This document shows positions 1-18,966 of a DNA stretch of 32,000 bases, in pieces. How positions within the stretch are numbered: the stretch's first letter is position 1; every line of letters begins with the position of its first letter. The notes beneath the pieces were generated by a model. It had not been told where the DNA came from. It did not search any database and saw nothing but the letters and a program-made list of their open reading frames with translations. The position numbers and the translations under genes are program-made. Source of the stretch: Promethearchaeum syntrophicum (lineage in GTDB: Archaea > Asgardarchaeota > Lokiarchaeia > Sigyniarchaeales > Promethearchaeaceae); contig NZ_CP042905.2 in assembly GCF_008000775.2 (NCBI RefSeq), forward strand, positions 3,180,001 to 3,212,000, given 5' to 3'.

Positions 1-239
1 TCATTTGCTTTTTCAAATTGTATATCTTTCTTATCAAAGATATGAAATAATTTTGGAAAATCTTGGCGATTTTGTTCAAATGGATATTGGAATCCTTTAT
101 CTATTCCTATTTTATAATAACCTTGATCCCAACCAATTTCGGAAAAAAAGGCTAAGGTTGTTAAAAATTGTATGATTAAATCTGAATCGACTAAATTTTG
201 TTGAGCAATCTCTTGTATTTTTTCTAAATAATCATCCAT
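1..239 (-). CDS. hypothetical protein, N-terminal fragment (ORF runs off the left edge)
   Basis: ATG at 239 (complement) opens a stop-free frame down to position 1, 79 codons reading MDDYLEKIQEIAQQNLVDSDLIIQFLTTLAFFSEIGWDQGYYKIG... It is absent from the ORF track because the window edge truncates it. No motif recognised. Confidence 0.4.
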   Translation of the reverse strand, partial: MDDYLEKIQEIAQQNLVDSDLIIQFLTTLAFFSEIGWDQGYYKIGIDKGFQYPFEQNRQDFPKLFHIFDKKDIQFEKAN

Positions 240-604
240 GTAAAATCCTCAAAGTGAGAAAAATACCGACTAAATGAAAAAAGTCGTATTTTGTTTTACT
301 TGAATAATAATGGCTTTTATCCCTTAATAAAATTTTAGACCGTATTATTATTGCTTGATCCCTCCCTTTTTTATCTTGTGATATATATTTTCTTCGTTTA
401 CAATTGAATGGTTTTGTTTCTTTTTATTTTGGCATATTTTTCATTTTTCTTCAATTTTTAAAATATATCACCATAAATAATAGCAGAAGGTTGTAAGAAA
501 AATTCTTTTTTTATCTCATATCCCTTTTTGATTGCTGAATTTAAGAAAAAATTATTTCTCCTTTATTAAAATCACATATATATAATTACAAATTAAGTAA
601 AAAC

Positions 605-1675
605 ATGAGAAAAAAAAATGAATATATGAAATTACAGAAATCTTTCAAAAATAAGAAATTATTTATCATCCAATTTTCAACCACTGATATTTTTCAAAAA
701 CCGTCTATAGCAACACACTTTTTTGCATTAGATTATTTTAAAGACACTGAAGTTTCAATCGAATATACCTCAAATAATTTCTTTTATCAAATTGAAAAGT
801 TCTTTAAGAAACATAAAAAATATCACTTCGCTTTCTGGAATTATAATCATATTTATAAGATTTCATTGCTAATCCCTGGAATTTCCCTTACGGAAAAAAA
901 GGTAATAGAAAGAAACATTATTGATCTAGACGATGCGTTTGAGTTTTTTTCTGAAGAAAAGAAAACTCGATACTTAAAACGCCAGAATCAAAGTATCGAT
1001 AAAAGATATTATTTTAGTCTTTTGAATGGATATAATATTGATGAATCTTTTTGGAAAACTGGTATTGTCGAAAAGGATTTGCGGGATGCAATAATTTTGA
1101 GTAATTCTTGTAGATTAAAATGCAAAGTAATGAGCTTTTTAATAACCAAAATGAAGGATGGAAGAGTAAAATTTGATCATAATGAAGAATTCATGAGAAA
1201 AACAATAAAATTCATGGAATTGCAGAAAATTTCATCTGATCAGAGTACAAATACAATTAATTTTTACAACAACATATGGAATCTAATAAATAGAGATATT
1301 AGAATTAAATGCCAGACAAAATTTCATGATGGATATTTCGCGGATTCAGTGGAAGCAGCATTCAAAGAAATAAATACGAGAGTAAAAACATATTATCATG
1401 ATTTAAAAGGAGAATGGGGTGATGGGGCTTCCTTAATGCGGAATGCATTTTCAGGCATAGATCCTGTTATATCTTGGTTAGATCAAAAGGACCCATCATC
1501 ATCCAATATCCAAAAAGGGTTTGAACATATTTTTGCAGGAGCAATGATAGGAATTCGAAATCCTAAAGCCCATGCAAATTTGATCATCACTAAGGATCGA
1601 GCAATTCATTTTTTGTTTCTTGCTAGTTTACTTATGGATAAAATAGATGAGGCTAATATTAAAACCACCTCTTGA
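605..1675 (+). CDS. two-domain hypothetical protein with a C-terminal TIGR02391/Hypoth_Ymh-like (HEPN-like, RNPKAH) domain
   Basis: 356-aa ORF. The C-terminal ~110 aa (ASLMRNAFSG...FEHIFAGAMIGIRNPKAHANLIITKDRAIHFLFLASLLMDKIDEA) fit my recollection of the TIGR02391/Ymh signature (LMxxAF ... RNPxAH ... helical tail). RNPKAH is an Rx4H motif. The N-terminal ~220 aa are unrecognised. Confidence 0.75.
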   Translation: MRKKNEYMKLQKSFKNKKLFIIQFSTTDIFQKPSIATHFFALDYFKDTEVSIEYTSNNFFYQIEKFFKKHKKYHFAFWNYNHIYKISLLIPGISLTEKKVIERNIIDLDDAFEFFSEEKKTRYLKRQNQSIDKRYYFSLLNGYNIDESFWKTGIVEKDLRDAIILSNSCRLKCKVMSFLITKMKDGRVKFDHNEEFMRKTIKFMELQKISSDQSTNTINFYNNIWNLINRDIRIKCQTKFHDGYFADSVEAAFKEINTRVKTYYHDLKGEWGDGASLMRNAFSGIDPVISWLDQKDPSSSNIQKGFEHIFAGAMIGIRNPKAHANLIITKDRAIHFLFLASLLMDKIDEANIKTTS

Positions 1676-1746
1676 ATTTCTCTTTGAATAATAAATAATT
1701 AGAATCGTATGAATTTCATCGAATTTTTACCAATGATGATTAAAAA

Positions 1747-2835
1747 TCAAGTTTTTATTGTTTGAAATAATATTTGGTATAATCCGGAAATTTGTGAAAT
1801 AATTACACTCACAATTAATATTTCATCAGAAATTTCTTCTATATTTCCCAATTTTCCTTGAATTTGCTTTTGATTATTAATATCAATTAATAACCTCTGA
1901 TTTTCATGAATTATGATATTGGAATGGGCAAGTGCATGACGTATTTTTGCATAGATTTCCATTAATTGATTTTTTGTGGTCGGTACAATATCAAATTTAA
2001 AAAGAAGTATATAGAGCTCATTAACTTTCTCAATGAAATTATAGAGATCAATAAGCGATACTTCAATTTCATGAAAAATCTTGTAGGATAGGGTTTGGTT
2101 CAACCAAAAAAGATTTTTACACAAATACTTTAATCGATCCAATATCAAATCTTGTTCTTCTTTATCTTTTTTTGCTAAATTTGGTTGAAGAATTATGTTA
2201 ATTAAATATTCGTCATCTATTGGTAATACTCCGTTAAACATTGAAATACCTGCTAAGATAAAATTATATTTGGAACTATAATTCGGGGATATCTTATTCG
2301 AAAAGACTTTTACCAAGCGTTCTATGAACTTTTTTAATCTTGGTATAGAATTTGAATACCCTATAAGATGAATTAATTGGCGATAATTTAAATTGGTTGG
2401 ATCTACCTTTTCTATCGGAAAATTAAATATTTTCGCTATCTTTTCAATCCCCCATTTACATTGTTTCTCTGATATTTTATGCGTTTCCAAAAAAGATTCG
2501 GGGAGATAAAGGATATGTTTGAAAAAAAAAGGACGCCTAATAGGCTTGAAATCATATAAGGATAATGGATCAATAGATCCATTGCATTTTTTACAATTTA
2601 ACTTTATATCCTTCGGACATTTGATAAATTCAATTTCACCTTTTTTTATAATTTGGAGTTGTTTAGGAAAAAATCGAAACTTTATAACTTCATCGCATGA
2701 TTTGCATTTACATTTTGCGAGAATTTCTCCATACTTGTCTAGTTGAATATCCAATTTCTTCACCTCTATAAATTCATTAAAGAATTCCAGGTAATTCCCC
2801 GCTTTTCTAACATTTTTAGGATCTCCACATTCCAT
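1747..2835 (-). CDS. hypothetical protein: N-terminal zinc ribbon plus helical C-terminal region with an Rx4H (HEPN-like) motif
   Basis: 362-aa ORF with cysteine clusters CKCKSC ... CPKDIKLNCKKC (CxCxxC/CxxxxxxCxxC). The C-terminal helical region contains YAKIRHALAHSN (R-H-A-L-A-H = Rx4H). The ATG at 2835 overlaps the upstream FRG gene by 70 nt. An in-frame GTG at 2763 lies 2 nt after the FRG stop, so the true start is uncertain. Confidence 0.7.
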   Translation of the reverse strand: MECGDPKNVRKAGNYLEFFNEFIEVKKLDIQLDKYGEILAKCKCKSCDEVIKFRFFPKQLQIIKKGEIEFIKCPKDIKLNCKKCNGSIDPLSLYDFKPIRRPFFFKHILYLPESFLETHKISEKQCKWGIEKIAKIFNFPIEKVDPTNLNYRQLIHLIGYSNSIPRLKKFIERLVKVFSNKISPNYSSKYNFILAGISMFNGVLPIDDEYLINIILQPNLAKKDKEEQDLILDRLKYLCKNLFWLNQTLSYKIFHEIEVSLIDLYNFIEKVNELYILLFKFDIVPTTKNQLMEIYAKIRHALAHSNIIIHENQRLLIDINNQKQIQGKLGNIEEISDEILIVSVIISQISGLYQILFQTIKT

Positions 2836-3758
2836 GATGATGGATAGTTTATAATATAATGCTCGTTATCTTTGAATGATAACACTTCAAAATCTTCTTC
2901 TTTTTCCAATTCGAAAGTAGCTAGTAAATCACCTTTCTTTATTTCTTCCACAGCATTTTCAAGATTCATCATCGCATCCATGAATGGAACTCCAAAAAGA
3001 GGGGAAAAGACCATCCATCCACTTTGAGCAATCATTCTTGGAATTTCTTTTTTAGCAAGACCCAAATGGCTAGAATTAAAAGATCCCAGCAATAGTGATT
3101 TATTTAAAACATCTTGTCTGGCAATTTCAAATAAAATTTCTGCTTCCTCAATATTTGATGGGTTTTGAGGTGCTCCTATATTTTCTTCTGAACTTGTAAA
3201 ATAAACCCCCAATATTTTGGAAGAGTCCATTATTAAGCGGAGAATATTTAAAATCCAAACTCCAGAATCACCTTTATGAACTAAAGGTATAGATCTTTTT
3301 TTTTTTTCAGATTTTTTATAATCAACAGCTGAAAACCATAAAGCTACTAATAACCTAGAAGAAAAATCAACTAACCTAGTTCCACTCTCTAAATGTTGAT
3401 GTTTTGCCATTCGCTGAACGTAAAAAGGAAGATGATTCGAATAATTAATTAATCGAAATTCTTCTTTTTCTTGAGTTTCCTTAGATGGATATCTCCGTTC
3501 TAAAGCAGAAGTGATAGACCAACTGGGAGTTGAGCTTTTATCTTCATCCCAATTGTAGGTGTAATTTTGCCCTCTAAAAAGAAAGCCTGCTGCTTTACCT
3601 TCCTCTGTTCCCTTTACTTCAAATTTTTGTGCTAATTTGAACAAAATATCAATATTCTTCGGATTTAGAATTGATAATGATGTCTTTTGAATATAATTTA
3701 AATCTGGAAATTTGACTTGAAATTCCTTTTTTCTTAGTCGTTGAATCATTGGATGCAT
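2766..3758 (-). CDS. FRG-domain protein
   Basis: 330-aa ORF carrying the FLFRGQ motif followed by AKHQHLESGTRLVDFSSRLLVALWFS and later RMIAQSGWMVF. This matches the FRG family pattern (FRGQ ... QHxGxxTRLLDxT...AlxFA ... aQxGxF). Confidence 0.8.
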   Translation of the reverse strand: MHPMIQRLRKKEFQVKFPDLNYIQKTSLSILNPKNIDILFKLAQKFEVKGTEEGKAAGFLFRGQNYTYNWDEDKSSTPSWSITSALERRYPSKETQEKEEFRLINYSNHLPFYVQRMAKHQHLESGTRLVDFSSRLLVALWFSAVDYKKSEKKKRSIPLVHKGDSGVWILNILRLIMDSSKILGVYFTSSEENIGAPQNPSNIEEAEILFEIARQDVLNKSLLLGSFNSSHLGLAKKEIPRMIAQSGWMVFSPLFGVPFMDAMMNLENAVEEIKKGDLLATFELEKEEDFEVLSFKDNEHYIINYPSSWNVEILKMLEKRGITWNSLMNL

Positions 3759-3861
3759 GTAATTTCTTTAGTAAATACAATTTTTAAAGTTGACCAGATT
3801 TAGATAAATTGTACTCAAACCATGTAATTCTGAGAGATAGAATAAAATTGGGAAAATTTAG

Positions 3862-3958
3862 TGGGTCCGGGGGGATTTGAACCCTCGGAATCCAGCTTTC
3901 TCCATTTTAAGATTAAATACCGAAGGCTGGCGCCCAATCCAAACTAGACTACGGACCC
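3862..3958 (-). tRNA. tRNA-Arg(UCG) with a 22-nt intron at canonical position 37/38
   Basis: Minus-strand hand fold: acceptor GGGTCCG/CGGACCC, U8, D-loop AGTTTGGATT, anticodon stem CCAGC/GCTGG, loop CUUCGG|A, T-arm GAGGG-TTCAAAT-CCCCC, discriminator A. The intron ends sit in 3-nt bulges (GGU and AAA) separated by the 4-bp helix CUUC/GGAG, which is a BHB motif. Oddities are an A50.C64 mismatch in the T-stem and U at position 21. Confidence 0.8.
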
Positions 3959-5899: not shown

Positions 5900-8791
5900 T
5901 TAAATGGGGCGCGAATTCGCTTGGAAAATAGGATAAATAAAACTACTGAAAATCTGTGCATAACCATCTTGTAGGGAAACTATGGCAATTAAATCTTCTT
6001 CTTTTTTAGCTCGTGGGCAAAGAACAATTTCTTCTCCGTCTCGGGATACTGCATAGAAATCATTTGCGTTCTTCAAATTTCTAAATTGAATATTCCCTAA
6101 AACTTTCATTTTTTGAATAATAGGACCAAATGTAGCCAAATCCCAGGTTGTAGTATAGAGGAACCTGACTGATTTCTTCACGTATGCAACTTCGGAAAGT
6201 GCTTCCAGAATCTTTGGTTCTACGGTTGGAGTTATAATCGTGATAGTAGATTTAACCCTTCTCATAGCATCTATTATACATTCTAAAAGAGCTTTTGTCC
6301 CAAATACATGCCAAGTTCCACTTTCACCAAGAGGTTTAATGCTGGCTGCGCTTTGATTGATATCAGTAAGTTTATTTTCATTTTCTTCTGCAATATCAAT
6401 CCCTTCATCAATTACATTCATGAAAGATAAAGTGAAGTCTGCAATTGCATCTTTTGTATTTTGAATATTATCTGTTGTTGTTTTCACTAATTCCTGTTGC
6501 AAGTTATTAGAGATTTCTTGGTATTGGGTTTTATGTTCTTCAATCATAGCATGAAGTGTTTGTTCGAGATTTGTGGAATCTTCAGCGAATAATTTCATTT
6601 GCTCATCCAAATCATGGTGTTGTTTTTCATCAAGTTTTTCAACAATTTCCTTAAATTTCTCAATATGACCATTAACTTGGTTCTGTTGAGTTTCATTGAT
6701 AGTGGCAACTTCATTCTTAAAAAGTTCTATTTGTGGATTGATTTTGCCACTGATTTTTGTTTTACATTCGTTAATGTCTTGATCTACTCTTCTAATTAAA
6801 TCATCAATTGTCGCTCGGTAATCTGTTTTAACATCTTTTACTTCTTTTTCGAAATCATAAGAGTGAGAATCGTTTTTATCAGTATTTTCCTTTAAATGAC
6901 CTGTGATATCTCGAATTTGATTATTAGTTTCAACTGAAATATCGGTTTTGGCTCTTTCATGATCTCTATCCATGTTTTCATAATATTCGTTTACTTTTTC
7001 TTGAACGCTAGCATTAGAATCATCATTATATTTTAGACCCGTTTGTCTATGCTTGTTGAAATTCAATTCGTAATCGTCGCGATGTGTATGTAAACTATTT
7101 TCAAGTGAATCTTTCAATTTAATTGTAGTTTTCTGGCAATGCTCGACATTATGTTTCAAAGTTTTATCAATTTCTGAGGATAATTCTCCAGCTAAACCTT
7201 CAAATTCAGCATCTATCGTATCTTTTTGCTTACTGTCTAAGGATTCAGTATTAGCTTTTTGCTTACTGTCCAATGATTCAGTGATTTCATTGATTTGAGT
7301 TGTTAATGAATTTGTTGTATCACCAGTTACTTTGATATAATTGGCTGTACTATCTTCGAAATTTTCCCTCATTGAGCCAGAAATTGCTTCAATTCGCTCT
7401 TTCACTTCTGCGTACCTTTCTTTATATAATTTGTGCCTTCCAAACAGAAGTGACTTCCATGCACTGCCTCTTTTTGCAAGATGCTCAGTTAATTCACCAA
7501 AACTTGCACTGATTTCTTGAAGATTGTCTATTAAACTGACAGTATTGGATTTGAATGATAATACTTGGCCTGCTAAATCACTATGTTGTGTGTTAATTGA
7601 TTCGTTTAAATTATTTCTTAAATTTTCATTAGAATTTTCAAAATGTTCAATATGTTCAGCAAGCATACCCGAGATTTGAGTTTTTAAATCATCTATAATC
7701 TTTTTGAACCTGAAAATATATTTTTCCAGAATTTCTTCTAATTGTGGTTTCAAATTATCAGCATGTTCTCTATGATGTTCAACGTGTTCATCCAAATCTT
7801 GTTTACATTCGATCTCTAATTTATGAACCCGATCTTTGAAATCACCTAAGACATCATCAACGATTTGGTTTAAAGTGGTTTTTTGAGTTTGAACACCATC
7901 ATCAAATTTCGTTTTAAACCCCTCTGAATTATTTTTTAGTTTAGAATTTAATCCATCTAACACCGTATGAAGATTGTTTTCAAGTTTTTTCGTTTGACTT
8001 ATATGATTATCAGAGAATAATGCCAGTGCATTATTTAATTCCAAATTATCAGTAGAGAATTTTGATGTATTATTATCTAGGAAAATAACCGCTTCATCAT
8101 GTTTTAAATTAATTTGGTTCACAAAATTTTGATTTTCATCATCCAATTGTTCATGTAATTCTTGTTCTAATGTTTTTAAGCTAGTTTGAAGTCGATCACG
8201 AGCGCTTTCCGTAGTATTTTTAACGTTCTCTGTAAATTCAGTTCGAGTTTCAATAAATCTATCACGAGATTCAAAGGTGGCTCGTTGAATTTCATTTTCT
8301 AAGGGTTTACAGGTAGCATCAAATCTTTTTTGAACTTCTTCGATTTTAGATTTCTTATCTACATCATGCTGATCGCTTTTTTTAAAAATATCTTCTACTG
8401 CTGTTTTAACGGATGTATCAATTGTTTCTAAAGATTTGGTTTCAATGGAGTCTAAATTGGCGAATCTTATTGATTGATCGGAAAGGACCGAATCTTTAAT
8501 GTGTGTAATTTCTGCTCGAAATTTAGCCGATTCACTTACAAATAATTCGAAAAATGGTTCTAAGGGGATGTATCGATCGACAATTCCTTCGATTTTTTTA
8601 ATGAAATTTATCTCACATAATTTTTCAGTGATAAGTTTAATTTCTTGAAGATCTTTCTCTAAAATTCCCGCCACTTCTGATACAGTAATTTGTGGTTGGC
8701 TTAGGAAAACAAGATAAACTTCAAATTCAAAGTCGCTGAGGCCATAACGTGTGTATATTTCTTTAGTATTAATCTGTTCTTTTAAAGACAT
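5900..8791 (-). CDS. TrmB-like wHTH protein with a giant central coiled-coil region
   Basis: 963 aa. The N-terminal ~95 aa look like a TrmB-type wHTH (GLSDFEFEVYLVFLSQPQITVSEVAGILEKDLQEIKLITEKLCEINFIKKIEG). The C-terminal ~135 aa look like a TrmB C-domain (GTWHVFGTKALLECIIDAMRRVKSTITIITP...). The middle ~730 aa are charged, His/Asp/Glu/Lys-rich and helical or coiled-coil-like. Confidence 0.8.
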   Translation of the reverse strand: MSLKEQINTKEIYTRYGLSDFEFEVYLVFLSQPQITVSEVAGILEKDLQEIKLITEKLCEINFIKKIEGIVDRYIPLEPFFELFVSESAKFRAEITHIKDSVLSDQSIRFANLDSIETKSLETIDTSVKTAVEDIFKKSDQHDVDKKSKIEEVQKRFDATCKPLENEIQRATFESRDRFIETRTEFTENVKNTTESARDRLQTSLKTLEQELHEQLDDENQNFVNQINLKHDEAVIFLDNNTSKFSTDNLELNNALALFSDNHISQTKKLENNLHTVLDGLNSKLKNNSEGFKTKFDDGVQTQKTTLNQIVDDVLGDFKDRVHKLEIECKQDLDEHVEHHREHADNLKPQLEEILEKYIFRFKKIIDDLKTQISGMLAEHIEHFENSNENLRNNLNESINTQHSDLAGQVLSFKSNTVSLIDNLQEISASFGELTEHLAKRGSAWKSLLFGRHKLYKERYAEVKERIEAISGSMRENFEDSTANYIKVTGDTTNSLTTQINEITESLDSKQKANTESLDSKQKDTIDAEFEGLAGELSSEIDKTLKHNVEHCQKTTIKLKDSLENSLHTHRDDYELNFNKHRQTGLKYNDDSNASVQEKVNEYYENMDRDHERAKTDISVETNNQIRDITGHLKENTDKNDSHSYDFEKEVKDVKTDYRATIDDLIRRVDQDINECKTKISGKINPQIELFKNEVATINETQQNQVNGHIEKFKEIVEKLDEKQHHDLDEQMKLFAEDSTNLEQTLHAMIEEHKTQYQEISNNLQQELVKTTTDNIQNTKDAIADFTLSFMNVIDEGIDIAEENENKLTDINQSAASIKPLGESGTWHVFGTKALLECIIDAMRRVKSTITIITPTVEPKILEALSEVAYVKKSVRFLYTTTWDLATFGPIIQKMKVLGNIQFRNLKNANDFYAVSRDGEEIVLCPRAKKEEDLIAIVSLQDGYAQIFSSFIYPIFQANSRPI
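7222..7282 (-). repeat. 33-nt tandem duplication inside the coiled-coil gene
   Basis: ctttttgcttactgtctaaggattcagt (7222-7249) and ctttttgcttactgtccaatgattcagt (7255-7282) are 26/28 identical. They encode TESLDSKQKAN/TESLDSKQKDT. Confidence 0.8.
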
Positions 8792-11239: not shown

Positions 11240-12382
11240 ATGAATAAAAAGTATTCTAAAGATCTCAGTTTTCGCGATCTTCTAATTATTATAATGTTAT
11301 CACTACTACAAACAACTTTGATAACAGCTCTGTTGAATAACTTGATCTTTCAAGAAAATTTCTATCTGTACGCGGGCTTATTTGCATTTTTACTATTCCA
11401 ATTAGTTTTTATTTTTCCCCCCGGTTATCGTCAGCCCAATTTGAATGATTTTCGGATATTAATTAAGAAAATTTGGCCAATTTTACTAGAAATAATCTTA
11501 GAATTCGCTTTTTTTATATATTTCAAACAAAAAATAAATAATACTGGATGGGAATCCTATTCGTCCGGTACAATCACTATGTTTCATCATTATTCGTTTG
11601 TATATCATTTTATTTTACTCATTCCATTGTACACTTTTTGCTTGTGGCAATTTAAAAACTATCAAATGAAAATAAATATTGATAATGAAGCTATTCCTGT
11701 AAGCAATAAACAATTTCTTCAACACTTAATAATGAGTTTGATAACTATTGCATCTCCTTTTGCAATTTACTTATTAATTACTGAACTTGATGTAAACTCG
11801 AATTGGGAATCAGAAATGGTATATTTTGGATGTATGTTGCTTCCATTTATCCTAAATTTGATTGTTCTAAAGGCATTTCTCCCTTTTTCGGTTTTTCATC
11901 CTTTAAATCTAATTAAACTCTTAATTCTTTATCTTTCTTGGCATTGGATTGTCTTATGGAATGTTGCTTCTGTTATTATATATTATAACTCTGTTTTTTA
12001 TCAAGTCTTAGGATTGATTTCCATTCTTGGTATGTTAATATTGTTATATTATTTTCAACTGAACCTAGAAAAGTCGTGTGGTTTACCAATAGCTGCACAA
12101 CTCCCAGAAAATACACATATTTCAAACTTAGAAGGAAAAAAAGAACTTAAATTAACTAATCCACAATTTAATTGTCCGACGTGTGGTAATCAGTTAAATT
12201 CCCAAATGGTAAAAGAATTATCTGAAGAAAATAACATATTTTGTAGTTATTGTGGTGAAAAAATTCGATATCAAGAAGTTTTTCAGCTTCCTAAGGAAAA
12301 GATACTCTCCAAACATCAAGAAATTCTAAAAAAAGTCCAACAATCAAATTCTGAACTGAATTCTCATATTAATAATCCATGA
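11240..12382 (+). CDS. polytopic membrane protein with a C-terminal zinc ribbon
   Basis: 380 aa with roughly 8-9 hydrophobic segments. The cytoplasmic tail carries CPTCGN...CSYCGE (CxxC-x21-CxxC). Confidence 0.65.
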   Translation: MNKKYSKDLSFRDLLIIIMLSLLQTTLITALLNNLIFQENFYLYAGLFAFLLFQLVFIFPPGYRQPNLNDFRILIKKIWPILLEIILEFAFFIYFKQKINNTGWESYSSGTITMFHHYSFVYHFILLIPLYTFCLWQFKNYQMKINIDNEAIPVSNKQFLQHLIMSLITIASPFAIYLLITELDVNSNWESEMVYFGCMLLPFILNLIVLKAFLPFSVFHPLNLIKLLILYLSWHWIVLWNVASVIIYYNSVFYQVLGLISILGMLILLYYFQLNLEKSCGLPIAAQLPENTHISNLEGKKELKLTNPQFNCPTCGNQLNSQMVKELSEENNIFCSYCGEKIRYQEVFQLPKEKILSKHQEILKKVQQSNSELNSHINNP

Positions 12383-12398
12383 AAGGGGAATTTAAATA

Positions 12399-12659
12399 AT
12401 GCCAAAATCATCTAAAGAAAAACAAGAGTACGCTAATTTTCTTTTACAAAAAGGAATTTCTTATGCCCAAATCCAAGAAGAATTGAAAAATAGATATGGA
12501 AGTGGAATGTCCAACACAACACTCCAACGAATGATTTTAGAAACAGATCGAATCAAAGAATTGGAGGATAAAATGAAAGATATTTCCTTAGAATTAAAAA
12601 TGTATAAAAAGATGTATTATGAATTGTTAGAAGCCGTAAAAGAAAAAATCAAAGAATGA
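12399..12659 (+). CDS. small HTH-like / coiled-coil protein
   Basis: 86 aa, starting 16 nt after the upstream stop and preceded by a GGGG-containing RBS-like sequence. GISYAQIQEELKNRYGSGMSNTTLQRM looks like an HTH. The C-terminal half is a heptad-like charged helix. Confidence 0.5.
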   Translation: MPKSSKEKQEYANFLLQKGISYAQIQEELKNRYGSGMSNTTLQRMILETDRIKELEDKMKDISLELKMYKKMYYELLEAVKEKIKE

Positions 12660-12676
12660 TGAAAGGAAATCCATAA

Positions 12677-12686
12677 TTTTTTTTTT
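12677..12686 (+). terminator. oligo-T tract
   Basis: T10 run 18 nt after the stop at 12659. Confidence 0.35.
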
Positions 12687-12816
12687 AATGATACATTTTA
12701 AAATTTACTCGATTCCGAAACTTCTTGAAAAAGAGATGCATTTTACTATGCAGGGAAAATGGCCCGGGTACATAAAGATTATATTTTAATGACCTGACCA
12801 AGGTGAGTGATATCCA

Positions 12817-13224
12817 ATGAGTGAAGAATTAACACATAAAATCAATATTTCTGCTGGAAAAGACGCTCCAGAAGAATTTCGTGGTCAAACCAAAGTTATT
12901 CAATTAGATCCTTCTAAATTTCCTTTAGTGGGGAAAAAAATTGGAGAAACATTTAATGGTGGGATCATTGGTTTACCTGGTTATGAACTGAAAATTACTG
13001 GTGGTTCAGACCGTGGAGGTATACCAATGAGAATGGATGTGCACGGTCCTATAAAAAGAAGAATTTTACTTTCAAAAGGTCCATGTTATAAACCAAAAAG
13101 AAAGGGCATTAAACGCCGTAAAATTGTGCTCGGGAACGAAGTAACGGACGGAATCTCACAATTAAATTGTGTAGTGACTAAATTCGGAAAGGAAAAATTA
13201 TTCACTGCAGCAAAGGAGAATTAA
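12817..13224 (+). CDS. rps6e: 30S ribosomal protein S6e
   Basis: GYELKITGGSDRGGIPMRMDVHGPIKRRILLSKGPCYKPKRKGIKRRKIVLGN is the archaeal S6e core. A GGTGA RBS lies upstream. Confidence 0.93.
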   Translation: MSEELTHKINISAGKDAPEEFRGQTKVIQLDPSKFPLVGKKIGETFNGGIIGLPGYELKITGGSDRGGIPMRMDVHGPIKRRILLSKGPCYKPKRKGIKRRKIVLGNEVTDGISQLNCVVTKFGKEKLFTAAKEN

Positions 13225-13256
13225 AGAGCTTTATTGAAGAAACTCGGTGATTTAAA

Positions 13257-13439
13257 ATGGTAAAAATATTAAAGTGTTCATATTGTGGGAAAGATATAAA
13301 CCCGGGAACGGGAATGACCTTTGTAAAAGCGAACGGAGAAATCTTCCAATTTTGTACTAAAAAATGCAGAAAAATGAAGTTACAATTCAAGAAACCCGCC
13401 AGAAAAGTGCGTTGGACTCAATATTACGGTCAAAAATAA
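13257..13439 (+). CDS. rpl24e: 50S ribosomal protein L24e
   Basis: CSYCGKDINPGTGMTFVKANGEIFQFCTKKCRK is the L24e zinc-ribbon signature. Confidence 0.93.
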   Translation: MVKILKCSYCGKDINPGTGMTFVKANGEIFQFCTKKCRKMKLQFKKPARKVRWTQYYGQK

Positions 13440-13474
13440 GAAAACAGATTAAATAAACGTATAAAGGGTAATTG

Positions 13475-13483
13475 TTTTTTTTT
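13475..13483 (+). terminator. oligo-T tract after rps6e-rpl24e
   Basis: T9 run 36 nt after the rpl24e stop. Confidence 0.35.
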
Positions 13484-13540
13484 CCATTTTGTTGAATTTT
13501 TATCAAAAAAATGATTTTTTATTTTAAGAGTTTTAAAATT

Positions 13541-14032
13541 CTATTTGTTAGATAGCTCAGATATATACGTGATACCGTGTTCCACATAGAATTTTAAGAG
13601 AGTTAAAGCTTCTCCCCATCCAGTTGCACATCCCATGAAGGCCTTTCTACCAGATTCAGTATTGTGAAAACCAGATTCAGAAACTCTTACAATAATCCCC
13701 TTAGGTGATTCAATTAGTTCATAAGTGACAGTCGTTGCATAACTTGAATTATCTGGATGCCAGTTAAATTTAAAGTGATTTGGAAATTCTCTTTCCAATA
13801 CTTTCCCCTCATCTTCAATAATGCCTTGAGTGATGTTATTTCGATCAGAAGTCCATTTGAAATACACTCTTCCGCCAGGGGATTTAGCCACAAAAGATTC
13901 TGCTGTAAACCACTCATTCAATCCTTCTGATGTTGTCAGGAGTGTAAAAATTTTCCCGATATCTCCTCGAATTAATGTTCGCTGAATAATTTCTGTATCG
14001 AGTAATAGATTTTCATTTGAAGATTCAGACAT
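13541..14032 (-). CDS. SRPBCC-superfamily protein (AHSA1-like)
   Basis: ~160 aa with an IFTLLTTSEGLNEWFT... pattern typical of Aha1/START-like SRPBCC proteins. I prefer the ATG at 14032 (MSESS...) over the track's GTG at 14044. Confidence 0.7.
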   Translation of the reverse strand: MSESSNENLLLDTEIIQRTLIRGDIGKIFTLLTTSEGLNEWFTAESFVAKSPGGRVYFKWTSDRNNITQGIIEDEGKVLEREFPNHFKFNWHPDNSSYATTVTYELIESPKGIIVRVSESGFHNTESGRKAFMGCATGWGEALTLLKFYVEHGITYISELSNK

Positions 14033-14153
14033 ATATCTAACCACTCACTTTCCCAAAATAAATTTAATTGTTTCCAATCCAAATGTTCTTTTCCAAATAG
14101 ACTTCTTCATAAAAAATTTCAAATATTAAAAGAGAAATTATAATTAATAAAAA

Positions 14154-14675
14154 TTAATTTTCTCTTTTATAATAAGATTTGAAATAATTTTGCAGAATTC
14201 TGATATCGTTTTGAATTTTTGAAATTTGAAATTCCTGTAAACGAGTTTTTTGTAGATTTTTCATGATCGACCGTATATTTTGAATTGAATTTTGCTTGTT
14301 TCCAATCATTTCTTTGTACCACGGAAACATCCATAAATGAAAATGAGGACTCCTTTCTTCTTGGATAATTGTGATATTAAGAATACCCCCCAGAGTTTGA
14401 AGAGATTTTCTTGTCTGATAAATAAGTGAACTCAATTCCTCATAAACTATTTCATCCATTTCAGTAATTGAGGAAATATGATTTTTTGAAGCAATAATGA
14501 TGAATCCACTAAGGGGTATCAAAGGGTCTTGATGTATAACAAAATTTTTTGATTCATATATTAATCCAAATGGAGGATTAACTACTTTCTGTGCAATTCC
14601 ACATCCCATACAAATAAAGTTCCATTTTTTTTCCAAAAAATCTGTAAATTCAGATATTGTCTCAGGTTTTTTCAT
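14154..14675 (-). CDS. HIT-family nucleotide hydrolase/transferase-like protein (HxHxW variant)
   Basis: N-terminal CMGC pair and HQDPLIPLSGFIIIASKNH. The histidine-triad position reads PHFHLWMFP, so the third His is replaced by Trp. Confidence 0.7.
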   Translation of the reverse strand: MKKPETISEFTDFLEKKWNFICMGCGIAQKVVNPPFGLIYESKNFVIHQDPLIPLSGFIIIASKNHISSITEMDEIVYEELSSLIYQTRKSLQTLGGILNITIIQEERSPHFHLWMFPWYKEMIGNKQNSIQNIRSIMKNLQKTRLQEFQISKIQNDIRILQNYFKSYYKREN

Positions 14676-14760
14676 TATTCTTCTTTCATTTATGGTTTTT
14701 CAATTCATTCATATAAAAATTAAAGTTAAAAAAAAAATCTTAAGATTTGCTTGGTTTCGA

Positions 14761-15531
14761 TTAATCTTTTTTCTTCTTTTTCTTTTCTGGATTGATTTTT
14801 ACCATCAAGAATATCATCAGCCACATGACATAAAGAAAAATAACGCCCAGAACCCAACTACTTTCACCAGCTAACTCTAAGAGCCATTCAATCCCATAAA
14901 TCCCTGCTATAGCCATTATACCCATCATTATAATTTTCCCAATAAACATATAGAAAATTGATTTCTTCGCTGAATACTTAATAAAACCTAAAGGAACTAA
15001 TAGTAGACTATCTGGTAACGGTGTAATCGCAAAAATAGTTACAATCCATGGTATTGCCTTTGGATATTTCATAATGAGTCTTGCCCATCGACCTTGAAGT
15101 TCTGGATCATCTCGTTCAAGGATTTTCTCACTCCCCAATCCTATTACATAATCAAGCATGTCTCCAATGGTATTTGCAATAGCAGCTGCTAATGTCAGAA
15201 CGATAATAAATAATACTGCATTTGGAATTCGTGGGTTTAACCATGCATACGAGAAAGTAGATACTGATATCATATATGGAACAGGTATTGGGATCAATGC
15301 ACCTAAAAAACAAGCGAGCATTGTAAAACCTATCGCAGCCCATATAGATACCGAAGATGTGTCTGATCCGAACCAATTTGCTATGGACAATGCATCACCC
15401 ACATCAGGATTTAACCATGCAAGAACTGCAACAATAGTAATTAATACGAAAAAAATAATTAGAAAAATGTTTGATCCGTTTAATTTCGATTTTTTCTTAG
15501 ATTCACTCATATCATATAATTCATTTCTCAA
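14761..15531 (-). CDS. DedA/YqaA-type (VTT/SNARE-associated domain) membrane protein
   Basis: 256 aa and multi-TM. IANTIGDMLDYVIGLG and KYPKAIPWIVTIFAITPLPDSLLLVPLGFIKYS resemble the YqaA/DedA pattern. Confidence 0.6.
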   Translation of the reverse strand: MRNELYDMSESKKKSKLNGSNIFLIIFFVLITIVAVLAWLNPDVGDALSIANWFGSDTSSVSIWAAIGFTMLACFLGALIPIPVPYMISVSTFSYAWLNPRIPNAVLFIIVLTLAAAIANTIGDMLDYVIGLGSEKILERDDPELQGRWARLIMKYPKAIPWIVTIFAITPLPDSLLLVPLGFIKYSAKKSIFYMFIGKIIMMGIMAIAGIYGIEWLLELAGESSWVLGVIFLYVMWLMIFLMVKINPEKKKKKKD

Positions 15532-16701: not shown

Positions 16702-18966
16702 TTAAATTCCCAAAGATTCTTTTTCGTTTTTTGCACGTATTTGAAGCGTCTGATTACCTACCTTTAAGAATTTCTTCTCTGCATGATCATATTGTAAATA
16801 TGCTTTTTGTGGTTCTTTTAAAACTCTGTAGATGGACCCCATTTCTAAATGTATATGCCCTTGTTTAAATATATCGCCTTCTTCTTCCAAAATTTTTAAA
16901 GATTCTTCATAGCATTCTAATGCTTTTTTCCATTTGGCTGTTTTTTGATAGATCACCCCGATATTAAATTGATTATGCGCAATTTTAGATGGAATCTTTA
17001 AAACTCGATATTTTTGCAGGGAGCTATTCAGAATATCTAATGCTGGAACGAAATCATTTTTTAGGCGTTTAATCATTCCGATATTACTTTCTGCATCTGC
17101 AATTCCTTTTTGATCATTTAGATTTAAAAATATTCTTTGAGCATCAAGACATAATGTTAAAGCTTTATCTAAATCCCCAAGATCGAGAAATATAATGGCG
17201 ATATTCATGGAAATTTGTGCCTTTTCTGTTGGAAATTGCAAGTCATTAGCGATCTGGAATGATTGGTAGTAAATTTTAAGAGCATTATCCAAATCCCCGC
17301 GATTATGATAAAAACTTGCCAAATTGTTCAATTTTGAGATAACTCCTGATTGATTATCTAGTGCTTTATCAATTTTTATTGATTCTAATATTAATTGGGT
17401 CCCTTTTTGAATATCTCCTTTATTTACATATATAAGACCTAAATTCCCTAAAATTGTAGATTTTACATTAAGATCCCCAATTTTACTCTCTGATTTCAAT
17501 AATTTATCATAGATTACCAAGGCAGCATCTAGTTTTCCTTGAATTAATAAAATTTCACCTTTGTTCACAAGTCCACCAATAATTACTTCATAATCTTTGA
17601 GAATTATTGCGGTATTGATTGCTTTATCATATAGTCCAATAGCTTTATCAAACTCTCCCTTAGATCTAACAATTGAACCTAAATTGATATAAAAAGTCAT
17701 TTGCATTGATAAATTTTTAAATTTTTCTGCAATCTCCAACCCTTTTTTATAAAATGCAGTAGATTCTTCCTTTTTTCCCCATCTTTTATATGATAACCCA
17801 AGATAGTTATAAAAATACATTTCTTCTTGGAATTTTTCTTGTCTGTGAGAAAGATTGATGCCTTTTTTGGCACATTGTACAACCTCTTCATACATATTAA
17901 AATTTGAATAAATATTACATACAAATTTATACTTATCAACTTCCTTTATTTTTAATTGAAGGGATTGAAAAAAATCCTTAAATTCAGATTTTTCGCCAAT
18001 TTCATCTATTTTTACTGAATCTACTAAGATATCTTCTAAAATAAATTTCCATAAAGCATCTTTTATGAATTTTTGAGTATTAGTTTTAATACGATATACT
18101 TCCCCCTTGGTTTTTTTACCCAGATTAAAAAGAGTTAGATCAAGAGGTGTGAAATCAGATTCTGACTTTTTTCCTAATATATCAGATACTTTTTCAACTG
18201 TGATTGCATTATCCATAGAATGTTCAATCCAGATTAAACGTTTCAATGATTTTATATGACTTAACATAGGAGCAATATCAAAATCATCACTACCCGAATA
18301 TCCAATTACTACTAATGTTCGATCTATGAATATCTTTTCAATCAACGGCTTTTTAAAAGGCTCTATATCAAAAGTTTTACCCTCTTCCTTGTTACTTCCG
18401 AGTGCTTTCATCGTTGTAATGACAGAATCACTCGTTTTAGCGCCTGTGATTATGTTATACTTGGATCCGTGAATTTTAATAAGCGGATATCTGGAAGATT
18501 GAATAATTTGAGATAAATCAATATATTTTGTGAAATCTTCTCGGGTTATAATTGGAATAATATCTTTATGTTTTTCAGTAGAAATTATTTTTTTTAATGC
18601 GAATTCAATTAAATAATCAAAATTGGTAGTAATAACGTAATTTGCTTTTAAAATAGCATAGGCTAAAAATAAATGTATTAAATTTGGATGAGTAAATTTC
18701 TCAAAGTAATCTAACATTTTTAATTCATTATCAAACCTATTTTGAACTTGTTCAATTATCATTTCATACCGCAATCCTTTAATAGATTGGGATTTTGTTA
18801 ATTCTTCAGAGGGAATACATGATTCTAATAATACCCTAATAATAGATTTTGCAGAAGGTAGATTGGAAGGAGGATTCATTGAAATACCTGCTCCAACTAA
18901 AAAAGTATACATCATTCCTTTCTCAAAAAGATCATTCAGGGTTTTATCATTTTTTGTAAAAATCAT
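16702..18966 (-). CDS. SIR2-like (SIR2_2-type) domain fused to a TPR array of ~9 repeats
   Basis: 754 aa. The N-terminal ~260 aa carry FLVGAGISM, YVITTNFDYLIE, LIKIHGSKYN and LVVIGYSGSDDFDI, which are the GAGxS / TTNxD / hHGS / GYSxxD motifs of SIR2-like NAD-binding domains. From about aa 380 to the end there are ~9 units of exactly 40 residues, for example LGNLGLIYVNKGDIQKGTQLILESIKIDKALDNQSGVISK. Confidence 0.85.
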   Translation of the reverse strand: MIFTKNDKTLNDLFEKGMMYTFLVGAGISMNPPSNLPSAKSIIRVLLESCIPSEELTKSQSIKGLRYEMIIEQVQNRFDNELKMLDYFEKFTHPNLIHLFLAYAILKANYVITTNFDYLIEFALKKIISTEKHKDIIPIITREDFTKYIDLSQIIQSSRYPLIKIHGSKYNIITGAKTSDSVITTMKALGSNKEEGKTFDIEPFKKPLIEKIFIDRTLVVIGYSGSDDFDIAPMLSHIKSLKRLIWIEHSMDNAITVEKVSDILGKKSESDFTPLDLTLFNLGKKTKGEVYRIKTNTQKFIKDALWKFILEDILVDSVKIDEIGEKSEFKDFFQSLQLKIKEVDKYKFVCNIYSNFNMYEEVVQCAKKGINLSHRQEKFQEEMYFYNYLGLSYKRWGKKEESTAFYKKGLEIAEKFKNLSMQMTFYINLGSIVRSKGEFDKAIGLYDKAINTAIILKDYEVIIGGLVNKGEILLIQGKLDAALVIYDKLLKSESKIGDLNVKSTILGNLGLIYVNKGDIQKGTQLILESIKIDKALDNQSGVISKLNNLASFYHNRGDLDNALKIYYQSFQIANDLQFPTEKAQISMNIAIIFLDLGDLDKALTLCLDAQRIFLNLNDQKGIADAESNIGMIKRLKNDFVPALDILNSSLQKYRVLKIPSKIAHNQFNIGVIYQKTAKWKKALECYEESLKILEEEGDIFKQGHIHLEMGSIYRVLKEPQKAYLQYDHAEKKFLKVGNQTLQIRAKNEKESLGI

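Follow-up and report, generated by a model that had tools for sequence, protein, structure and literature searches.

A probable accessory defence islet of FRG and HEPN-type genes beside a tRNA-Arg gene in the Asgard archaeon Promethearchaeum syntrophicum MK-D1

The DNA considered here is a stretch of 32,000 nt from Promethearchaeum syntrophicum MK-D1 (contig NZ_CP042905.2, positions 3,180,001 to 3,212,000), which is called the window below. Its interval 605-3958 encodes a Ymh/TIGR02391 HEPN protein, a zinc-ribbon protein with a HEPN-like C-terminus (ZnR-HEPN), an FRG-domain protein, and a tRNA-Arg. This interval is probably a small accessory defence islet, composed of three individually mobile genes of the abortive-infection type, in which the RNase action of HEPN domains would be joined by an action of FRG on NAD+. 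The evidence comprises the gene structures, the domains, the conservation of motifs, the rarity of the middle family, and variable gene contexts that include one precise exchange of partner. The RNase and NADase activities, the defence role, and the co-transcription of FRG with the middle gene are predicted from sequence. An earlier note on this DNA had described three open reading frames (ORFs), at 605-1675(+), 1747-2835(-), and 2766-3758(-), and had regarded all of them as conflict or defence genes outside the housekeeping set. An ORF check recovers the three frames, and the domain matches and contexts agree with their classification. The FRG domain, the TIGR02391/Ymh domain, the zinc ribbon, both Rx4H motifs, and the intron-containing tRNA-Arg likewise lie where that note had placed them. 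The middle ORF is 100% identical to DSAG12_03372 of MK-D1, and the outer two have identical counterparts in MK-D1, whose annotations read FRG domain protein and TIGR02391 family protein. The features of the interval are as follows.

605-1675, plus strand: Ymh/TIGR02391 HEPN protein, an ORF of 356 aa; the NCBI start is at 626 (M8) and gives 349 aa
1556-1573, plus strand: RNPKAH, the catalytic Rx4H (R318, H323) within the Ymh HEPN domain
1747-2754, minus strand: protein with zinc ribbon, helical domain and HEPN-like domain, 335 aa from TTG 2754; the maximal ORF reaches ATG 2835
1924-1941, minus strand: RHALAH, the Rx4H motif that closes helix 266-276; after it come a beta-hairpin and a long C-terminal helix
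2584-2706, minus strand: N-terminal four-Cys zinc ribbon, C17-x2-C20 ... C54-x2-C57, with CxxC pairs at 2695-2706 and 2584-2595
2755-2768, minus strand: FRG stop (2766-2768), Shine-Dalgarno-like element GAGGTG (2761-2766), and 6-nt spacer before TTG 2754
2766-3758, minus strand: FRG-domain protein, an ORF of 330 aa; the NCBI start is at 3749 (M4) and gives 327 aa
3567-3578, 3360-3383 and 3015-3038, minus strand: the FRG motifs FRGQ, GTRLVDFS and RMIAQSGW, respectively
3779-3789, minus strand: A/T-rich TATA-like box CTTTAAAAATT, about 27 nt upstream of the FRG ATG, as read from the sequence
3862-3958, minus strand: tRNA-Arg(UCG), Rfam RF00005, 43.5 bits, E 3e-6

The middle protein has no Pfam, NCBIfam, or PADLOC match at threshold. 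Its alignment and predicted model make it likely that it belongs to a new family of the HEPN superfamily, distantly similar to pEK499_p136. The sharpest conservation in the family is R[N/H]x[I/L]AHS[H/N]. Among 19 aligned members, the R is present in 17, the H in 16, and the S in 15. The residue that follows the R is N or H in 17 members and E or D in the other two, and is thus polar in all 19. An upstream [DE]K pair lies within helix 234-252, with D or E at position 242 (17/19) and K243 in every member; this acidic arrangement is [DE]K and not the typical Ex3[KR]. A survey of the superfamily (PMC3710099) gives as its hallmarks an acidic residue in helix 2 and, at the end of the third helix, an Rx4-6H motif whose R is followed by a polar residue. 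Both the motif and the acidic residue of helix 2, as that survey describes them, are found in the middle protein.

The AlphaFold2 (AF2) model obtained with the 19-sequence alignment has a pLDDT of 87.2 and a pTM of 0.86, while a 2-sequence alignment gave a pLDDT of 49 and an unusable model. The predicted topology consists of a beta-rich zinc-ribbon module (8-73), a helical middle domain, the helices 198-227, 234-252, and 266-276, a beta-hairpin (280-301), and a final helix (305-333). R272...H277 is placed at the end of the third helix, from which it runs into the next loop. According to the alignment and the AF2 model, the Rx4H that the earlier note had picked out in this protein is therefore genuine, runs through the family, and is set among HEPN-like helices. 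The CxxC pairs of the N-terminal zinc ribbon that it had described are also present.

The family does not fall within PF18736 (pEK499_p136): three members match this model below threshold (best 7e-5, 23 bits, cut-off 26.6), the window protein has no match, and a genuine pEK499_p136 scores 168 bits. The PADLOC model RTasHEPN is weakly matched by four members, and Csx1/Csm6 by one. These recurrent matches are weak, and they converge on HEPN models only. A plasmid search made to deepen the pEK499_p136 profile returned 746 matches, all of them enterobacterial copies at least 60% identical, and brought no gain. A sequence-profile search of the PDB with the HEPN family gave only a spurious Mrt4 match.

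The family is rare. A k-mer-seeded search of 5.8 billion clusters found one homologue beyond the protein itself, which is 56% identical and comes from Lokiarchaeum ossiferum. When 1.84 billion representatives were searched exhaustively with a HMMER profile, 20 proteins had E <1e-3. The named sources are a Hodarchaeota metagenome-assembled genome (MAG), a Loki's Castle marine-sediment metagenome, and one MAG binned as Delongbacteria; the remaining members are from sediment metagenomes. The members are 260-350 aa long, and the core shared in the 19-sequence alignment is about 250 aa. An extra helical N-domain of about 110 aa is present, often with a zinc ribbon. The four-Cys ribbon is added N-terminally in 6/19, and its four Cys are kept in the L. 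ossiferum homologue.

The middle gene most probably starts at TTG 2754, because this is the NCBI model of 335 aa, the alignment with the L. ossiferum homologue runs from there, and GAGGTG lies upstream. The GAGGTG element overlaps the FRG stop, and the TTG follows that stop by 11 nt. The coupling of the two genes that the earlier note had proposed is tight in this genome, as seen in the 11-nt gap and the GAGGTG element, but the 70-nt overlap that it had derived from ATG 2835 is probably not real.

The upstream gene of the pair encodes a protein whose FRG domain is recognized by Pfam (E 4.9e-7, 31 bits, cut-off 25, residues 60-151 of 330), as the earlier note had read it. The protein also matches ten PADLOC PDC-S15 models, the best at E 3.3e-8. 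Its orthologues have 89% and 55% identity, the former from a metagenomic contig described below, and only three clusters of this archaeal FRG subfamily are known. The Aravind group assigns Frg to the ADP-ribosyltransferase (ART) superfamily and predicts that it is an NADase and an effector against viruses (PMC9503650). The earlier statement that FRG has no assigned function is thus correct experimentally but not as regards prediction, where both this ART/NADase proposal and the PADLOC candidate PDC-S15 exist. A sequence-profile search of the PDB with FRG found no relative. Among PHROGs, FRG has only weak matches of unknown function, and the two HEPN proteins have none. The TATA-like box at 3779-3789 may be the archaeal promoter of an FRG-HEPN transcription unit, and it is kept in the metagenomic contig.

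The third protein carries an established HEPN domain. Its C-terminus matches Pfam Hypoth_Ymh (PF09509) with E 7.4e-21 and 74.7 bits (cut-off 25), and NCBIfam TIGR02391 with 58.5 bits (cut-off 39.45) over residues ~230-350 of 356. The TIGR02391/Ymh C-domain with RNPKAH that the earlier note had assigned to 605-1675(+) is accordingly above the cut-offs of both databases. The R, N, P, K, and H of this motif are invariant in a 26-sequence alignment, and a conserved Rx4-6H motif is on record for Ymh, which is an established family of HEPN domains (PMC3710099). The homologues number at least 680; apart from the MK-D1 protein, those listed cover only the C-terminal ~35-54% of the query. For this reason the N-terminal ~170-220 aa, which have no homologue in the 5.8 billion clusters, are considered an orphan domain. 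Ymh proteins are known both as solo proteins and with variable N-domains, and often occur near restriction-modification (R-M) genes (PMC3710099). A sequence-profile search of the PDB with the Ymh protein gave myoglobin noise only.

PADLOC reports PD-Lambda-3_B (9.6e-12) and Aga_HEPN (5e-4) for the Ymh protein, both in the C-terminal domain only. The PD-Lambda-3_B match is confined to the Ymh domain, at positions 150-267 of the 270 in the profile. The two-gene PD-Lambda-3 system was rejected, since subunit B is matched partially and the two neighbouring proteins match no PD-Lambda-3 model in PADLOC, the A subunit included. Of the ORFs scanned with Pfam between 605 and 21719, none matched an Argonaute-type family.

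The Ymh ORF contains a 37-nt direct repeat that is 78% identical between window positions 604-640 and 1192-1228. Through this repeat MRKKNEYMKLQK stands at the start of the ORF and MRKTIKFMELQK is found within it at residue 197, close to where the Ymh homology starts. The repeat could have been left by an extension or fusion at the 5' end. An origin of the protein by internal duplication was rejected, as the BLASTP E of 0.058 is not significant.

The contexts of both families vary between loci. An FRG profile run against all ORFs of 24 loci matches only in the window, in L. ossiferum (L001), and in a 1.5-kb metagenomic contig (L002), and no FRG gene stands next to about 15 other loci of the HEPN family. 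In L. ossiferum, the homologues of ZnR-HEPN and FRG share a region but are 4 kb apart and have different neighbours. A gap of 99 nt there separates the ZnR-HEPN gene from a DUF4238 gene upstream, and a 735-aa TPR gene overlaps FRG by 25 nt. On its own, a DUF4238 protein is protective against T7 in E. coli. Taken as a whole, the L. ossiferum stretch resembles a defence island. Two further genes, at 11724-13622(-) and 13840-14922(+) of L001, lie between the two homologues. One encodes a 632-aa protein with no family match and an Rx4H-like 'LRSALVHSG', in which no similarity to Ymh was found and which was rejected as a Ymh relative. The other encodes a 360-aa protein with weak similarity to Mrr_cat and to OloB of PADLOC.

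The contig L002 encodes an FRG protein 89% identical to that of the window. Over the stretch that starts about 17 nt below the tRNA and takes in the FRG stop and the GAGGT element, its DNA is about 92% identical to the window. The homology ends abruptly after that element, and a gene with an AbiTii domain, 15 nt downstream, takes the place of ZnR-HEPN. A 314-aa homologue of the Ymh protein, P0048, combines AbiTii (PF18864) with Ymh (PF09509). It connects the AbiTii gene that follows FRG in L002 to the Ymh family that stands beside FRG in the window.

Elsewhere, the short-form members of the HEPN family mostly stand alone, and one ribbon-bearing member (L003) is alone between ERCC4 genes. In the MAG binned as Delongbacteria (L005, JAFGEE010000272, 595-2603), a ribbon member lies beside genes for an MmeI/Eco57I-type R-M enzyme and a PLD-SNF2 helicase. 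This is the only putatively bacterial member, and could reflect horizontal transfer or a mis-binned contig. It is separated by 2 nt from an upstream gene for a 321-aa protein without a detectable family, which was also compared with FRG and DUF4238 as a possible disguised form of either, and is similar to neither. In the Hodarchaeota MAG (L025, JBHLKS010000266, 23-2588), the gene of the ribbon member P0024 follows genes for an N6_N4 methyltransferase and an MjaV-type restriction endonuclease at a distance of 89 nt, which places a HEPN gene beside R-M genes. Downstream of one short-form member (L022, 2698-4314) are two ORFs, of 321 aa and 217 aa, the first with a Walker-A-like N-terminus ('GKNNAGKSS'); judged by eye, these may be an ATPase-based defence pair.

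The upstream partners of ZnR-HEPN are unrelated to each other. FRG and the Rx4H zinc-ribbon protein, which the earlier note had suggested checking as recurrent neighbours, are adjacent only in the window, an outcome that this note had itself named as refuting its proposal. A conserved FRG + ZnR-HEPN system is not supported, because the two genes are 4 kb apart in L. ossiferum, the partner is exchanged for AbiTii in L002, and FRG is absent from the other loci. The variable neighbourhoods strongly support a defence-island nature of the genes. The earlier remark that no FRG + HEPN composition has been described is also weak: the 2013 survey (PMC3710099) already lists operons in which HEPNs of the pEK499_p136 type accompany R-M genes, ART-like enzymes, and Macro domains, and an ART-like gene beside a HEPN gene is therefore not unprecedented.

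In such an islet, attack by a virus or mobile element would lead the HEPN domains, most likely as dimers, to cleave RNA without metal through their R...H dyads, and the cell would be arrested. The HEPN proteins might be kept inactive until their N-terminal modules, namely the orphan domain of one and the zinc ribbon and helical domain of the other, sense a trigger. The orphan domain of the Ymh protein would presumably sense or regulate. FRG, with its predicted fold of the ART superfamily, may supply an arm that depletes NAD+ or ADP-ribosylates. FRG and ZnR-HEPN are likely co-transcribed from the TATA-like box at 3779-3789, but they are no obligate pair, and at other loci each is found alone or beside different genes.

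Several results weigh against a defence islet with two HEPN RNases. All HEPN model matches of the middle family are below curated thresholds. In hhalign, the family's RHALAH..LIDIN aligns with RNSVAH..LVDW of a genuine pEK499_p136 (plasmid NC_013122) at E 0.0019; as the template consists of one sequence, the probability is only 14%. Against the Ymh profile, hhalign aligns the two RN..AH motifs at a probability of 1.2%, and this alignment is not used as evidence. Foldseek with the full model retrieves neither a HEPN structure nor another significant match from the PDB or BFVD, where the best E values are 1.0 and 0.41. The literature searched described no FRG protein with anti-virus activity. 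Scans of IMG/VR viral contigs and of plasmids detected neither family, and mobility is for this reason deduced only from the patchy, shuffled contexts. The genes to the right of the tRNA are ordinary.

Three other explanations may be considered for the pairing and location of these genes. FRG might be the constant half of a modular two-gene immune system of Lokiarchaeia, whose coupled partner is exchangeable between ZnR-HEPN, AbiTii, and TPR. By analogy with the effector swaps of CBASS or retron systems, the partners would then be alternative sensors or effectors. This is rather unlikely, even though a gene lies no more than 15 nt behind FRG, or overlaps it, in all three loci of the subfamily, and the window and L002 diverge exactly past the FRG stop and GAGGT, with ~92% identity upstream. 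Three of seven distinct ribbon-member loci also have an unrelated gene coupled 2-11 nt upstream (FRG here, the 321-aa protein in L005, and a fragment in L012). The FRG loci number only three, however, and their three partners share no detectable similarity. PADLOC treats FRG (PDC-S15) as a single-gene candidate, and minimal spacers are common in compact archaeal genomes, which makes coupling alone a weak argument. ZnR-HEPN is alone in L003, and stands 99 nt from DUF4238 in L. ossiferum. The partner swap itself is equally compatible with a modular system and with gene-by-gene shuffling in a compact defence hotspot. Were FRG the constant half, it would signal to its partners or control them covalently, for instance by ADP-ribosylating a HEPN RNase, and a fixed FRG with a cassette-exchanged partner would be a combination undescribed for any defence system. 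A pair of the toxin-antitoxin (TA) kind is very improbable. Here ZnR-HEPN would be the RNase toxin and FRG would inactivate it by covalent modification, much as minimal nucleotidyltransferases (MNT) act on HEPN toxins. The gene order and tight coupling fit such a pair, HEPNs are often toxins, those of the pEK499_p136 type share operons with ART-like enzymes and Macro domains, and FRG is classed in the ART superfamily. The pair is nevertheless not conserved, and most family members lack FRG or any other ART neighbour and would be unneutralised toxins. The published prediction for FRG is moreover an NADase rather than a protein-modifying enzyme.

The remaining explanation takes the three genes as cargo of a mobile element integrated in the 3' end of tRNA-Arg, with an A·C mismatch in the tRNA as the scar. 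Rfam and cmscan agree with the intron and mismatch reported for 3862-3958(-) in the earlier note: the anticodon loop has a 25-nt insertion, read as an intron of ~22 nt after position 37, and the second pair of the T stem is A·C, marked non-canonical ('v') by cmscan. From the tRNA 3' end it is 103 nt to the start of the cluster, which runs in the same orientation. The gene content is accessory and varies among close relatives, and the site of the L. ossiferum homologues has no tRNA within 10 kb. Integration at the tRNA is improbable all the same, as judged from the window, beyond which the left border of the cluster lies. A Pfam scan found no integrase or recombinase among the three genes, no second copy of the tRNA 3' end (25 nt, up to 3 mismatches) occurs in the 32-kb window, and GC shows no anomaly, at 0.293 in the cluster against 0.309 in the window. 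The flank on the FRG side is kept in L002 to ~17 nt from the tRNA, and the junction is therefore not recent. These several points weigh against recent integration at the tRNA, and the A·C mismatch is by itself no evidence for integration. Neither an FRG alignment scan of genome contigs nor a scan with a 33-nt tRNA pattern, both aimed at related tRNA-Arg loci, gave any match. ARAGORN with its bacterial/linear default misses tRNA-Arg(UCG), so that a tRNA scan made with ARAGORN only would overlook the gene. The accessory islet of separately mobile genes remains the preferred reading.

The surroundings of the islet are mixed. To the right of the tRNA are genes for a methyltransferase, a PAP2 protein, a coiled-coil protein with a TrmB-type HTH, aIF5B, and S6e. 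The coiled-coil protein (963 aa, 5900-8791(-)) has an unusual architecture, in which the N-terminal TrmB-type HTH (1.5e-6) is followed by ~700 aa of apolipoprotein-like coiled-coil repeats. A 754-aa protein at 16702-18966(-), ~13 kb from the cluster, has an N-terminal SIR2_2 domain (PF13289, 8.9e-10) and a long TPR array, an architecture of the defence type. On the left, a truncated gene runs off the window edge at 3-239(-) (MDDYLEKIQEIAQQNLVDSD...). It has no homologue in any fetched locus, and could be part of the islet or stand apart from it.

MK-D1 is among the very few cultured Asgard archaea, and the predicted immune genes are testable in principle. The analysis adds an unmodelled HEPN family, largely from Asgard archaea and sediment, that is missed by Pfam, NCBIfam, and PADLOC. 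The compared loci point to a shuffling of Asgard defence genes at single-gene resolution among close relatives. They also offer a candidate pair in which FRG, a widespread domain with a function known by prediction only, may act with or on a HEPN RNase. No new class of system is represented, as all the parts are of known kinds and the pairing that had been proposed lacks conservation.

Compared with known systems, the FRG protein shares with PDC-S15, the single-gene FRG candidate of PADLOC, both the domain and the motifs FRGQ, GTRLVDFS, and RMIAQSGW. It differs in that the archaeal subfamily always has a coupled second gene behind it, in the three loci available. The Ymh family includes the B subunit of PD-Lambda-3 and the Argonaute-associated HEPN, and the C-terminal 120 aa of the window protein are a bona fide Ymh domain. 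In contrast to these relatives, the window protein has an orphan N-domain and no detected PD-Lambda-3 A or Argonaute partner. The lactococcal AbiT/AbiTii-HEPN systems are related through L002, where an AbiTii gene stands in the place of ZnR-HEPN after FRG. The window itself encodes no AbiTii domain, while AbiTii is fused to Ymh and c2405 HEPN domains in known proteins (PMC3710099) and to Ymh in P0048. The HEPN-MNT TA modules are likewise operons of two genes, for a HEPN and a nucleotide-utilising enzyme. The enzyme there is a minimal nucleotidyltransferase, whereas here it is the ART-like FRG, in a pairing that is not conserved. The middle protein is distantly similar to pEK499_p136, the sole Pfam family matched by several members of the new family, and the RNxxAH of pEK499_p136 with the hydrophobic strand to 'LVDW' aligns with the consensus of that new family. 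pEK499_p136 adjoins R-M genes and ART-like enzymes (PMC3710099), as the new family does with FRG here and with its neighbours in L005 and L025. pEK499_p136 has 166 aa and is found on enterobacterial plasmids, whereas the new family has 260-350 aa and is found in Asgard archaea and marine sediment.

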